A DNA stretch of 64,000 bases from Angustibacter luteus (GCF_039541115.1 NZ_BAABFP010000002.1:682001-746000), one strand, 5' to 3'. Shown: positions 41,044-52,517, counted from the first letter of the stretch. Numbers and translations are program-made. The notes: generated by a model not told the origin, from the sequence alone.

Positions 41044-41106
41044 CGCACCATTCGCGCTTGACGTGCTTTTCGGGGCCTCATAGCCACGTGGAGCGCGAGA
41101 GGTGCG
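41044..41106 (+). repeat. REP-like imperfect palindrome, family B solo copy
   Basis: CGCACCATTCGCGCTTGACGTGCTTTTCGGGGCCTCATAGCCACGTGGAGCGCGAGAGGTGCG; between convergent efeB and carboxyltransferase. Confidence 0.9.
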
Positions 41107-47468: not shown

Positions 47469-47625
47469 CCCGGCGCTCCCGATCGTCTCGTCGTCCCGTC
47501 GCAACCTGCCCGAGCGACCTACCGTAGCCAGCGGGTCCGACGCGGCGCGCTAGGCTCGCGCCCGGTCGGAGGGAGCATCGATGACGATGGACGGAGCGGG
47601 CGAGATGGGACGACACGGGAACCGG

Positions 47626-49410
47626 ATGATCACCAAGGTGCTCATCGCGAACCGCGGCGAGATCGCGGTCCGGATCGCCCGCGCCTGCGCCGACTCGGGG
47701 ATCGCCTCGGTCGCGGTCTACGCCGATCCCGACCGGGACGCGCTGCACGTCAAGGTCGCCGACGAGGCCTTCGCGCTGGGCGGCTCGACCCCCGGCGACT
47801 CCTACCTGCTGCAGGACAAGCTGCTCGAGGTCGCGGCCCAGGCCGGCGCCGACGCCGTGCACCCCGGCTACGGGTTCCTCGCCGAGAACGCCTCGTTCGC
47901 CCAGGCCGTGCTGGACGCCGGGCTGGTCTGGATCGGCCCGTCCCCGGAGGCCATCGACTCCCTCGGCGACAAGGTCAAGGCCCGGCACATCGCCGAGCGG
48001 GCCGGCGCCCCGCTGGTCGCCGGCACGCACGACCCGGTGGACGGCGCGGACGAGGTGCTCGCGTTCGCCGACGAGCACGGCCTGCCGGTCGCGATCAAGG
48101 CCGCGTACGGCGGCGGTGGGCGCGGACTGAAGGTCGCCCGCGAGCGGGACGAGATCCCCGAGCTGTTCGAGTCCGCGGTGCGCGAGGCCGTGTCGGCGTT
48201 CGGGCGCGGCGAGTGCTTCGTCGAGAAGTACCTCGACCAGCCGCGGCACGTCGAGACCCAGTGCCTGGCCGACAACCACGGCAACGTCGTCGTCGTGTCG
48301 ACCCGCGACTGCTCGCTGCAGCGCCGGCACCAGAAGCTCGTCGAGGAGGCGCCCGCGCCCTTCCTGTCCGACGAGCAGAACGCCGAGCTGTACCGCGCGT
48401 CCAAGGCCATCCTGCGCGAGGCCGGCTACTCGGGCGCCGGCACCTGCGAGTTCCTGGTCGGCCAGGACGGCACCATCTCGTTCCTCGAGGTCAACACCCG
48501 CTTGCAGGTCGAGCACCCGGTCACCGAGGAGGTCTCCGGCATCGACCTGGTGCGCGAGCAGCTGCGCATCGCCTCGGGTGAGGAGCTCGGCTACGACGAC
48601 CCGCCGCTGCGCGGGCACTCGTTCGAGTTCCGGATCAACGGCGAGGACGCCGGTCGGGGCTTCCTGCCGGCGCCGGGGACCGTCTCGTTGTTCACCCCGC
48701 CGTCCGGGCCTGGCGTCCGGCTGGACTCGGGCGTGGTGTCCGGCGACGTGATCAGCGGGGCCTTCGACTCGATGCTGGCCAAGCTGGTGGTGACCGGGTC
48801 CACGCGCGAGCAGGCGCTGGAGCGCTCGCGGCGCGCGCTGGACGAGTTCGTCGTGGAGGGCATGCCGACCGTGCTGCCGTTCCACCGCGTCGTCGTGCGG
48901 GACCCGGCGTTCGCGCCGTCCGAGCCGTCGACGCCGTTCTCCGTGCACACCCGGTGGATCGAGACGGAGTTCGACAACACGATCGAGCCGTTCGGCGGGG
49001 CCGCCGGTGAGGCTGCCGACGAGGGCGAGCGCCAGCGGGTCGTCGTCGAGGTGGGCGGCAAGCGGCTCGAGGTCGTGCTGCCGGCGGGGTTCAGCGCCGG
49101 CAGCTCGGGCGGTAGCGGCGGAGGTGGCGCGAAGGCCAAGGCACCCAAGCGGTCGGGGCGCTCCTCGTCCGGTGCCGCAGCGTCCGGTGACGCGCTGACC
49201 GCGCCCATGCAGGGCACGATCGTGAAGATCGCCGTCGAGGAGGGCCAGTCCGTCGAGGCTGGTGAGCTCGTGGTCGTCCTCGAGGCGATGAAGATGGAGC
49301 AGCCGATCACCGCGCACAAGGCCGGCGTGGTGACCGGTCTGGCCGCCGAGATCGGCCAGACCGTGACCAGCGGCGCCGTCCTCCTCGAGCTCAAGGACCC
49401 CCCGGCCTAA
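47626..49410 (+). CDS. Acyl-CoA carboxylase alpha subunit (biotin carboxylase + BCCP; AccA3/BccA-like)
   Basis: [44 protein letters not shown] biotinylation motif. Confidence 0.96.
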
Positions 49411-49428
49411 CCCCCTCCCGCCCGACCC

Positions 49429-49489
49429 CGCACCATTCGCGCTTCACGTGGTTTTCGCGGCCTCATAGCCACAAGTTGCGCGATTGGTG
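49429..49489 (+). repeat. Family B palindrome, left end of DUF559 cassette
   Basis: CGCACCATTCGCGCTTCACGTGGTTTTCGCGGCCTCATAGCCACAAGTTGCGCGATTGGTG. Confidence 0.9.
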
Positions 49490-49591
49490 ACGCTCCTGCT
49501 CCCGTCATCCACAGGATCGGGGTTCGTCACACCGTCCACAGATCGCGTCCGCGGCCAGCGACAGCGTTCATCGGCGGGACATCGTCCTGGC

Positions 49592-50485
49592 ATGCCTCGA
49601 ACAGCCAGACGCCCGACTCAAGACCTACCGCCGGTGTTCCTGGGCCGGGATGCCGTCACCCAAGGTGTCCTGACCCCGAACCAGCTGCGCGGACCGCTCG
49701 TTGAGCGCGTCTTGCAGGGCGTCTACCGTCCGAGCTGGACGCCCCTCACCCACGTGCTCGCGTGTCAAGCAGTGGCACTGGTGCTACCGGACGGCGCCTG
49801 CGTCACCGGCAGGTCCGCTGCCACCATGCGCGGCGTGCCGCTGGCCCGCGTAACCGATCCGGTGGAGGTGTGCGCACCCGAGGCGCTGCGGATGCCGAGC
49901 CGGCGTGGGGTCACGCTGCGACGATCGAAGCGCCCCATCGGCGAGGTGCACGACGTGGACGGCGTACCGCTGGCCAACGCTCAGCGGATGGCGTTCGACC
50001 TCGCCGCGCGGCACCCACTGGCCAGGGCGGTGGGCCATCTGGACGCCGTATCGCGCGCTGGGCTGGTCGACCCGGCAGGGCTCGCGATCTGGTTGGAGAC
50101 GCGCCACGAGAACGACGTGCGCGCCGTCCGTGACGCCGTGGCGCTCGTCGACCCGCGAACAGAGTCCATGCCGGAGTCGATGGCACGGGTCGTCCTGCGC
50201 CAGGCAGGTTTCGACGTGGTGCCACAGTTCGTCATTCGAGCCCGCGGAGAGTTCGTCGCACGGGTCGACCTGGCACTCCCGGAGCTCCGGATAGCCATCG
50301 AGTACGACGGCGCCTGGCACGCCCTGCGTGAACAGCTTCAGCGCGACCGCCGCCGCATCCATGAGCTGAGGCGCGCTGGCTGGATCATTGTCCACGTGAC
50401 GGCGGACATGCTCGCCAACTCCGCACTGCTCATCCATGCGATCGAGGACGCCGTCCGCGCAGCGACCTCCACCATTCGCGCTTGA
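49592..50485 (+). CDS. DUF559 / Vsr-like PD-(D/E)XK-fold endonuclease with AbiEi-like N-terminal region
   Basis: ESMPESMAR, FVARVDLA.PELRIAIEYDGAWH, QRDRRR..LRRAGWIIVHVT; many A/T-ending codons unlike neighbours. Confidence 0.85.
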   Translation: MPRTARRPTQDLPPVFLGRDAVTQGVLTPNQLRGPLVERVLQGVYRPSWTPLTHVLACQAVALVLPDGACVTGRSAATMRGVPLARVTDPVEVCAPEALRMPSRRGVTLRRSKRPIGEVHDVDGVPLANAQRMAFDLAARHPLARAVGHLDAVSRAGLVDPAGLAIWLETRHENDVRAVRDAVALVDPRTESMPESMARVVLRQAGFDVVPQFVIRARGEFVARVDLALPELRIAIEYDGAWHALREQLQRDRRRIHELRRAGWIIVHVTADMLANSALLIHAIEDAVRAATSTIRA

Positions 50486-50530
50486 CGTGCCTATTCGGCC
50501 CCGAAAACCACGTGAAGCGCGAATGGTGCG
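50470..50530 (-). repeat. Family B palindrome, right end of DUF559 cassette (contains the gene's stop codon)
   Basis: CACCATTCGCGCTTGACGTGCCTATTCGGCCCCGAAAACCACGTGAAGCGCGAATGGTGCG; opposite orientation to 49429 copy. Confidence 0.9.
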
Positions 50531-50533
50531 GGG

Positions 50534-51964
50534 TTAGGAGGGGCGCGCGTGCAGCTGCCGGGCGGCCTCGGCGATGGAGCCGGACATCGACGGGTACACC
50601 GTGAACGACGCGGCGACCTGGTCGACGGTGAGCTTCGTCTGCACGGCGAGCGCCACGGGGAAGATCAGCTCCGAGGCGCGCGGCGCCACGACCACACCCC
50701 CCAGCACCACCCCGGAACCGCTGCGGGAGAACAGCTTCACGAAGCCGTCGCGCACGTTCTGCATCTTGGCCCGCGGGTTCGTGGCCAGCGGCAGCATGAC
50801 CGCCTCGTAGCCGATGCCGGCCTCGTCCAGCGCGGGCGCGGACCAGCCGACGGTCGCGATCTCGGGGTCGGTGAAGATGTTCGCGGCCACGGCCCGCAGG
50901 TTCAGCGGGGCCACCGCGTCACCGAGCGCGTGCGACATCGCGGTCCGACCCTGCATGGCCGCGACGGACGCGAGCGGCAGCACCCCGGTGCAGTCGCCGG
51001 CGGCGTAGACCCCGCGGGCCGTCGTCCGGGACACCGAGTCGACCTGCACGTGCCCGGACGACGACAGCGCCACCCCCGCGGACGCCAGACCGACGTCCTC
51101 GGTGTTGGGGACCGACCCGACGGCCATCACGCAGTGCGAGGCCGACACGGTCCGCCCGTCGGTCAGCGTCACGAGCACGCCGTCACCGTCCCGCACGACC
51201 GACTCGGCCCGCGAGCGCCCGAGCACGTTCATGCCGCGCCGCTTGAAGACGTCCTCGATGACGGCGGCGGCGTCCGGGTCCTCCCCCGGCAGCACCCGGT
51301 CGCGCGAGGACACCAGCGTCACCTCGCAGCCGAGCCCGAGGTAGGCGTGCGCGAACTCCGCACCGGTGACCCCCGAGCCCACGACGACCACGTGCTCGGG
51401 CAGCTCGGGGACGTCGTACACCTGCTGCCAGGTCAGGATCCGCTCGCCGTCCGGCATCGCGGAGGCCAGCTCGCGCGGCCGGGCGCCCGTCGAGACGAGG
51501 ACAACGTCGGCGTCCAGCGTCTGCGTCGTCCCGTCGGCGCCCTCGACGACGACCCGTTCGGGCCCGTCCAGCCGCCCGGTGCCCCGCACCACGGTCACGC
51601 CGTCGCGCTCGAGCCGCGCGGCGATGTCCGCGCTCTGCGCCGCGGCGAGCGACTTCACCCGCTCGTTGACGGTGGGCATGTCGGCGCGGGCGACCTCACC
51701 GGGCTCCGGTGACTCGGCGAGCTTGACGCCCAGCCCCGCGGCGGCGAAGAAGCGGCTCATGAAGTCGGCCGTCGAGATCAGCGTCTTGCTGGGGACGCAG
51801 TCGGTGAGCACGGCGGCCCCGCCGACGCCGTCCCGGTCGACGACCGTGACGTCGGCGCCGAGGTGGGCGGCGACCAGAGCGCTCTCATAGCCGCCGGGGC
51901 CCCCGCCGACGACGACGACACGCTGCGCGGCACGACCGGCGACCTCACTGCTCACGTCGTCCAT
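50534..51964 (-). CDS. lpdA: NAD(P)H-quinone dehydrogenase (flavoprotein disulfide reductase family, Rv3303c-like)
   Basis: GGGPGGY, GGAAVLTDCVPSK (single Cys), GSGVTGAEF, YAAGDC, YPSMSGS. Confidence 0.9.
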   Translation of the reverse strand: MDDVSSEVAGRAAQRVVVVGGGPGGYESALVAAHLGADVTVVDRDGVGGAAVLTDCVPSKTLISTADFMSRFFAAAGLGVKLAESPEPGEVARADMPTVNERVKSLAAAQSADIAARLERDGVTVVRGTGRLDGPERVVVEGADGTTQTLDADVVLVSTGARPRELASAMPDGERILTWQQVYDVPELPEHVVVVGSGVTGAEFAHAYLGLGCEVTLVSSRDRVLPGEDPDAAAVIEDVFKRRGMNVLGRSRAESVVRDGDGVLVTLTDGRTVSASHCVMAVGSVPNTEDVGLASAGVALSSSGHVQVDSVSRTTARGVYAAGDCTGVLPLASVAAMQGRTAMSHALGDAVAPLNLRAVAANIFTDPEIATVGWSAPALDEAGIGYEAVMLPLATNPRAKMQNVRDGFVKLFSRSGSGVVLGGVVVAPRASELIFPVALAVQTKLTVDQVAASFTVYPSMSGSIAEAARQLHARPS

Positions 51965-52454: not shown

Positions 52455-52517
52455 CGCACCAATCGCGCTAGACGTGGCTATGCGGCCCTGAAAACCACGT
52501 GTAGCGCGAATGGTGCG
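52455..52517 (-). repeat. REP-like imperfect palindrome, family B solo copy
   Basis: CGCACCAATCGCGCTAGACGTGGCTATGCGGCCCTGAAAACCACGTGTAGCGCGAATGGTGCG; between convergent genes. Confidence 0.9.

Follow-up and report, generated by a model that had tools for sequence, protein, structure and literature searches.

Can a nuclease that is not a transposase spread the palindromic repeats that enclose its own gene? To our knowledge, the spread of REP-like repeats is a long-standing question that has been studied nearly solely via RAYTs, and a locus of Angustibacter luteus raises it for another kind of enzyme. Here, a nuclease gene is enclosed by hairpins that recur elsewhere in the 64,000-nucleotide stretch of DNA analyzed (hereafter the window). 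The initial annotation had likened this arrangement to REP/RAYT systems, and the analogy held, with a gene bracketed by its own palindromes and many dispersed copies of these. Our preferred answer, which we consider reasonably probable, is that the locus represents an actinobacterial nuclease-plus-cognate-repeat system, REP-RAYT- or NTS-SsnA-like and built on an AbiEi-Vsr fusion.

The layout of the locus was confirmed as originally described. A single open reading frame of 297 aa (49592-50485, + strand) lies in a cassette that occupies the gap between the stop codons of two convergent housekeeping genes. To the left is a biotin carboxylase/carrier gene (47581-49410, +; presumably accA3-like), whose stop ends at 49410, and to the right a pyridine nucleotide-disulphide oxidoreductase (flavoprotein) gene (50534-51964, -; which we take to be lpdA-like), whose stop starts at 50534. 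Two hairpins of about 61 bp, here termed family A, enclose the gene in opposite orientation. The left one (49430-49490, +) has 27-bp arms and a 7-nt loop, and the right one (50469-50529, -) contains the last codons and the TGA stop of the nuclease gene. Their outer flanks, starting at 49425 on the left and reaching 50534 on the right, fall within a perfect inverted repeat of exactly 33 bp (49425-49457 / 50502-50534) with no outward extension. Two solo family-A hairpins, also noted before, are found in the window at 41045-41105 (+) and at 52456-52516 (-), the latter at a convergent junction. The preference for A/T-ending codons was likewise borne out: GC3 of the nuclease gene is 0.81 versus 0.96 in both neighbors and a genome median of 0.95, placing it at percentile 0.0 among called genes longer than 600 bp. 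A possible -10 hexamer (49580-49585, +), recognized from sequence only, lies 6 nt before the ATG, a spacing with which the gene start may be leaderless; the spacing is similar in the paralogs described below, as judged by eye. Folding of the window's hairpins against shuffles gave z from -2.7 to -10.1. The window also holds three solos of a different repeat family, that of paralog P6 (8305-8404, 19973-20062 and 63028-63070).

We then considered the encoded protein, for which an AbiEi-like N-terminus and a PD-(D/E)XK (Vsr) nuclease had been proposed from motifs. Both are supported by the predicted structure (pLDDT 95). Residues ~4-187 form an AbiEi-like domain, matching 6y8q with Z 8.2 (rmsd 6.4, 176 aligned) and AbiEi antitoxins in Foldseek with E values of 1e-4 to 6e-4 (including Rv2827c, 1zel, at 1e-4). 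Residues ~188-293 form a Vsr/DUF559/EDxHD nuclease domain, for which the best structural match is the catalytic domain of I-Bth0305I (Z 10.5, rmsd 2.6, 95 aligned), with further matches to NGO0050 (Z 9.9) and Vsr (Z 8.0). Pfam returned MTES_1575 and DUF559 alone, both below cut-offs. The catalytic set comprises E195, D226, H243 and D252; E195, D226 and D252 are invariant in 90 homologs and H243 is at least 90% conserved. The D226-H243-D252 spacing (17, 9) equals that of D196-H213-D222 in I-Bth0305I, as given in the available part of its description (PMC3239194), and E195 would correspond to the E of the EDxHD motif. As modeled, the protein joins an AbiEi-like DNA-binding domain to a Vsr/EDxHD nuclease whose catalytic residues are intact.

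This genome (G000) carries eight such paralogs, the other seven being 18-33% identical to the 297-aa protein, and no near-identical gene copies were found among the eight. S192, E195 and D226 are invariant across all of them, and GC3 is below the 5th percentile in 8/8. A different dispersed repeat family is found at each paralog. In seven cases BLAST counted 19, 20, 28, 9, 47, 20 and 35 loci; the family of the eighth has 5 loci by clustering, its BLAST count of 11 including noise. The expectation that each DUF559 paralog would have its own hairpin family held in 8/8 cases, with repeat copies on both sides in seven and on one side only in P2. At other loci than the one described above, the flanking hairpins stand in direct orientation. 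De novo clustering of all intergenic DNA, done blind to paralog positions, returned 15 families with at least 5 members, of which eight adjoin the eight paralogs, two are tRNAs, one is an upstream box and four are without such a gene. With an automatic rule applied to our own, rough gene calls, 12 of 3773 genes were bracketed on both sides by one family. Six of these are paralogs, so that the proposed enrichment of hairpins at these genes amounts to 6/8 paralogs versus 6/3765 other genes, and three of the other six lie within one unrelated array. A seventh paralog was missed by the rule because its repeat copy overlaps the frame. Two small stand-alone Vsr genes, adjoining what we take to be methyltransferase-like genes, lack flanking repeats, their longest inverted matches being 8 and 12 nt. 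One DUF559 match (C8:87055), 1 kb from a solo, was excluded from the count as the unbracketed tail of a 1378-codon frame.

Counted genome-wide, as had been suggested, the family-A hairpin has 28 loci in A. luteus, and it was not found in 40 relatives (present in 1 of 41 genomes). The 28 copies align without gaps with a mean column identity of 84%. The outer stem is conserved in sequence, and mismatches gather around the middle and top of the stem. Compensatory change between arms was not clearly beyond chance in the 28 copies (27 cells versus 21 +/- 3.3, with 27 of 500 shuffles equally high), and no GTAG/CGTC tag was seen in the 5 columns before or 3 columns after the stem. The hairpin is missing in G001 and G002 at the gene ends matching the solo at 41045-41105, and in G003 the junction matching the solo at 52456-52516 is 22 bp long without a hairpin. 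A search of metagenome contigs for the exact hairpin pattern found nothing; among sequencing runs none had a share above 0.07 and no RNA run was listed.

A second shared element lies between the left hairpin and the gene. Two DnaA-box-like motifs are found on the + strand, TCATCCACA at 49505-49513, with one mismatch relative to TTATCCACA, and CCGTCCACA at 49532-49540; TTATCCACA is the DnaA box consensus in the accessible portion of PMC8203912. TCCACA or its reverse complement occurs within 130 nt upstream of 7/8 paralogs versus 132/3773 genes, and each of the seven has a copy 48-57 nt before its start. The box is present at 54 of the 71 cassette loci scored across genomes (see below), and a stricter form of it adjoins 3 of 206 solos. 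In three cassettes of G123, it is located inside the upstream hairpin and absent from the downstream copy. From these sequences, we infer that DnaA may bind the upstream boxes. The box is also found upstream of genes that we presume to be dnaA-, recA-, uvrB-, UvrD helicase-, YraN nuclease- and Flp-pilus-like, and upstream of four similar genes resembling DUF222-HNH proteins. Several box-preceded repair/competence-like or DUF222-HNH-like genes show a TGTCGG-N10-TAG promoter pattern, presumably of PafBC type. One locus of G123 (L183:20-322) carries three tandem 103-104-bp copies of the upstream hairpin with a box in each loop.

Having described the pairing in one genome, we looked at its generality. 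Profile matches were found in 35 of 41 relatives and in 108 of 151 genomes of the class (1-13 per genome), and database sequences matching with E up to 1e-10 form 10,175 clusters at 50% identity, including partial-domain matches. Out of 75 cassette loci, 71 were scorable for flanking repeats: in 54 of these non-independent loci (many are orthologs and two are duplicates) upstream-downstream similarity exceeded the 95th percentile of a null of 419 cross-locus pairs, and 17 failed. In G123, which belongs to another family, we examined 10 of 12 matches; nine have paired repeats ~950-1030 bp apart, all different, and one has none. Lineage-specific expansion was again observed. One tested hairpin of G123 occupies 15 loci in that genome and was not found in two congeners, and the hairpins of G002 and G004 have 9 and 21 loci, respectively, each in 1 of 5 genomes. 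Some cassettes have few solos, with 1 further locus in G001 for the G001 hairpin and 2 weak ones for a G003 hairpin.

The history of individual junctions bears on whether the cassette is an autonomous element. At the presumed lpdA-like junction, a homolog lies within 1.5 kb in 7 of 29 relatives, with a different hairpin each, G005 has repeats of another family and no gene, and G018 has a solo. The junction is empty in G024, G031 and G040, so that the empty sites anticipated between biotin carboxylase and lpdA do exist. In G003, the closest relative, synteny is broken here, with ~45 kb (G003:C1:3815040-3860220) between the two host genes and a cassette at neither end. Three other paralogs have counterparts at matching congener junctions with hairpins retained or replaced. 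At one junction, G003 has a full cassette where G000 has an other-family solo. Two copies in G001 carry different hairpins. In G014, one cassette (L049) lies beside the lpdA-like gene and another (L122), reversed, adjoins the end of the biotin carboxylase gene on another contig; these are possibly two cassettes at one junction. No target-site duplication is visible, as had been remarked at the outset, and because the relatives are too distant and their empty junctions completely turned over, the empty alleles are too diverged to fix the ends of the insertion.

In two cases, the entire unit seems to have moved. In G004, a copy in reversed orientation shares 60-63% identity with copies at other junctions versus 50-52% with those at the lpdA-like junction in G000-G002, and simple inversion was therefore rejected as its origin; the hairpin of this copy is the one counted above at 21 loci, all in G004. 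Paralog P6 has counterparts beyond clpX in G002 (71% identical, same repeat), G004 and G005, and no cassette is present there in G000 and G003. In G000, P6 is flanked by genes not found in five congeners and the DNA match is limited to the repeats and the gene, which may reflect either relocation or arrival within an island. Overall, most cassettes keep their junction even as the hairpin sequence is replaced, and two seem to have relocated. Junction sharing and paralog identities suggest that inheritance is mostly vertical with few recent duplicates. Where the refuting observations named in the initial annotation could be looked for, none turned up. As to its autonomous element, occasional relocation of the unit is supported. 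The strong form is not, given paralogs of such low identity, cassettes that stay at one junction across the genus and beyond, no match in phages and three weak matches in a plasmid collection.

Taken as observed, each gene is paired with a palindrome family of its own, these families expand within one lineage, solos favor gene 3' ends, the nuclease active site is conserved, and the unit is mostly inherited in place, sometimes lost and now and then found at a new junction. We infer that the nuclease mobilizes the hairpin, in the following manner. The AbiEi domain would bind the arms of the cognate palindrome, either as a duplex inverted repeat or as an extruded hairpin, probably with one subunit per arm, and the Vsr domain would nick in or beside it. 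Host repair of the nick might then copy hairpins into new junctions at a low rate. Owing to the near symmetry of the hairpin, any two copies are repeats of each other in direct as well as in inverted orientation, so that recombination between them could delete the gene and leave a solo, invert it or move it without target duplication. The DnaA-like box may tie expression to the replication state, and drift in protein specificity would allow a new repeat family to expand while old ones are orphaned. According to the accessible text of the respective reports, AbiEi binds inverted repeats and autoregulates via upstream ones (10.64898/2026.01.19.700257), and I-Bth0305I is a homodimer contacting ~60 bp around a pseudo-palindrome (PMC3239194), a footprint of the size of these hairpins. 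Speaking against this account are the cassettes with few solos, the loci that lack similar flanks, the one-sided hairpin of P2, the dispersed hairpin families that bracket no gene, and arms whose compensatory change is not clearly beyond chance. As to a broader claim, we find the arguments about evenly balanced: AbiEi-Vsr fusions may constitute a third, independently evolved enzyme class that spreads its own repeat, with thousands of divergent members, each having a private ~60-bp palindrome that it would nick under replication-linked (DnaA) control, seeding copies at gene ends.

Other explanations were weighed against the same observations. A host function could come first, as in Ssn, with the enzyme cutting single-stranded DNA that carries the cognate hairpin (incoming DNA, or recombination or repair intermediates) and thereby tuning gene exchange, and with the repeats being host-selected marks spread by other means. 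Presence of the profile in 108/151 genomes of the class would suit such a role, as would the box before the presumed recA-, uvrB-, UvrD-, YraN- and Flp-pilus-like genes. SsnA itself shares the repeat-gene-repeat layout and modulates transformation, as stated in the available part of PMC11893778. Eight unrelated families in a genome and the complete turnover among congeners at one junction nevertheless fit selfish expansion better, and we regard the host-function account as unlikely; it is compatible with mobilization by the nuclease and does not exclude it.

Alternatively, the protein could be an AbiEi-type repressor with the upstream palindrome as its operator, and the solos terminators or binding sites copied by host recombination. 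AbiEi autoregulation through upstream inverted repeats speaks for this, and so does the terminator-like preference of solos for convergent junctions (67/178 versus 613/3764 junctions genome-wide). However, solos at divergent promoters are scarce (17/178), S192, E195 and D226 are invariant across the paralogs, E195, D226 and D252 are so in the 90 homologs with H243 at least 90% conserved, and the downstream copy and the lineage-specific expansions are left unaccounted for, which makes a repressor quite improbable. Still less probable, in our judgment, is an active insertion sequence with terminal inverted repeats whose solos are MITEs. Low GC3 in all eight paralogs and the relocation cases agree with it, and the 33-bp perfect outer repeat would too. 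This match, though, says little in favor of transposon-type terminal repeats, since its outer arms are 1 position off the family consensus and one solo is identical to them in 29/33 columns. Near-identical gene copies, a visible target duplication and phage matches are all lacking, while cassettes stay long at fixed junctions and hairpins elsewhere are in direct orientation. Finally, hairpins acting as RNA (terminators, stabilizers or small antitoxin-like RNAs), linked to the gene via local gene conversion, would explain stable stems at transcript ends, but with no Rfam match in the window, conservation of sequence rather than pairing, no toxin partner at the locus and the one-to-one pairing of gene with genome-wide family unaccounted for, this is barely credible.

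A nuclease that mobilizes its cognate repeat has relatives among known systems. The available portions of two REP/REPIN-RAYT (TnpA-REP) studies (PMC5581495, PMC3733652) describe genes enclosed by their cognate palindromes, numerous solos, several genes in a genome that have diverged from one another, mostly vertical inheritance with rare duplication, and little presence on plasmids, all of which resemble the present case; those portions make no mention of actinobacteria. In contrast to RAYTs, the protein described here is AbiEi plus Vsr/PD-(D/E)XK over its whole length rather than a HUH Y1 transposase, the repeats are single 61-bp hairpins with 9-47 loci per family and without a GTAG/CGTC tag, and the system is found in Actinomycetota with an upstream DnaA-like box. 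Ssn (NTS-SRM) is similar in that a non-transposase nuclease gene is flanked by its own dispersed hairpins, with a repeat variant per homolog. SsnA is, in the accessible text of PMC11893778, a small single-domain GIY-YIG enzyme, mainly Gram-negative, unlike the predicted two-domain AbiEi-Vsr nuclease, and here unrelated repeat families stand side by side in one genome; that text mentions neither Vsr, DUF559 nor actinobacteria. With the EDxHD homing endonuclease I-Bth0305I (accessible text of PMC3239194), the nuclease shares the catalytic fold, the E/D/H/D set and the D-H-D spacing, but it has another DNA-binding domain, its gene is free-standing without intron or intein, and intact copies of the presumed target flank the gene, leaving the target uninterrupted. 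AbiEi antitoxins of type IV toxin-antitoxin systems (6y8q; Rv2827c, 1zel) share the fold of the N-terminal two-thirds and an upstream inverted repeat, but here a nuclease is fused, the AbiEii nucleotidyltransferase toxin gene is absent at the locus, and the repeat is also found downstream and genome-wide. Unlike Dcm-Vsr very-short-patch repair, the locus has no cytosine methyltransferase.

A survey of PD-(D/E)XK enzymes groups Vsr, DUF559 and 3r3p as repair/homing enzymes, with no repeat link mentioned in its available part (PMC3424549). In the main texts of freely accessible journals, we found no description of the gene-repeat link and none of DUF559 combined with AbiEi, an earlier description being possible. 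The initial annotation knew of no characterized system of this type; it did not name Ssn (GIY-YIG; available part of PMC11893778), which is a non-RAYT precedent. The best reading is that the system is a real, widespread addition to the nuclease-plus-cognate-repeat kind, on a third enzyme superfamily. A parallel system built on an unrelated nuclease, in which a single genome offers eight separable enzyme-repeat pairs and the class many more, makes the question of how such repeats spread testable. If true, it would assign a function to a large family now labeled 'DUF559' or 'very-short-patch-repair endonuclease', would name a source of many actinobacterial intergenic hairpins, accounting for a large share of the hairpins scattered between genes in these genomes, and would offer a large natural supply of long-site nucleases.

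Several minor observations were made among the remaining repeats of G000. Three hairpin families are without a bracketed gene, with 28, 10 and 8 copies. The largest, family 4 (for example C2:20980-21055, L139), has arms about as long as those of family A and is found in 1 of 21 genomes; no cognate gene was found for it, and it may have served as a target in the past or have been left behind by a paralog since lost. Families 10 and 11, likewise orphans, are smaller. A single intergenic region, C2:20900-21145, contains members of three different hairpin families in immediate succession, suggesting that certain landing sites are preferred. In several families, solos have a C-rich left and a G-rich right flank, as do some empty convergent junctions, and this is probably a general trait of gene ends in G000. 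Finally, another, imperfect repeat (family 6, 24 members) occurs in 19 copies spaced ~250-3100 bp apart among short ORFs at G000:C8:547215-562953, an arrangement reminiscent of a cassette array of integron or toxin-immunity type; the same repeat also occurs at C4:463-464 kb, C5:845-847 kb and C2:1099 kb.
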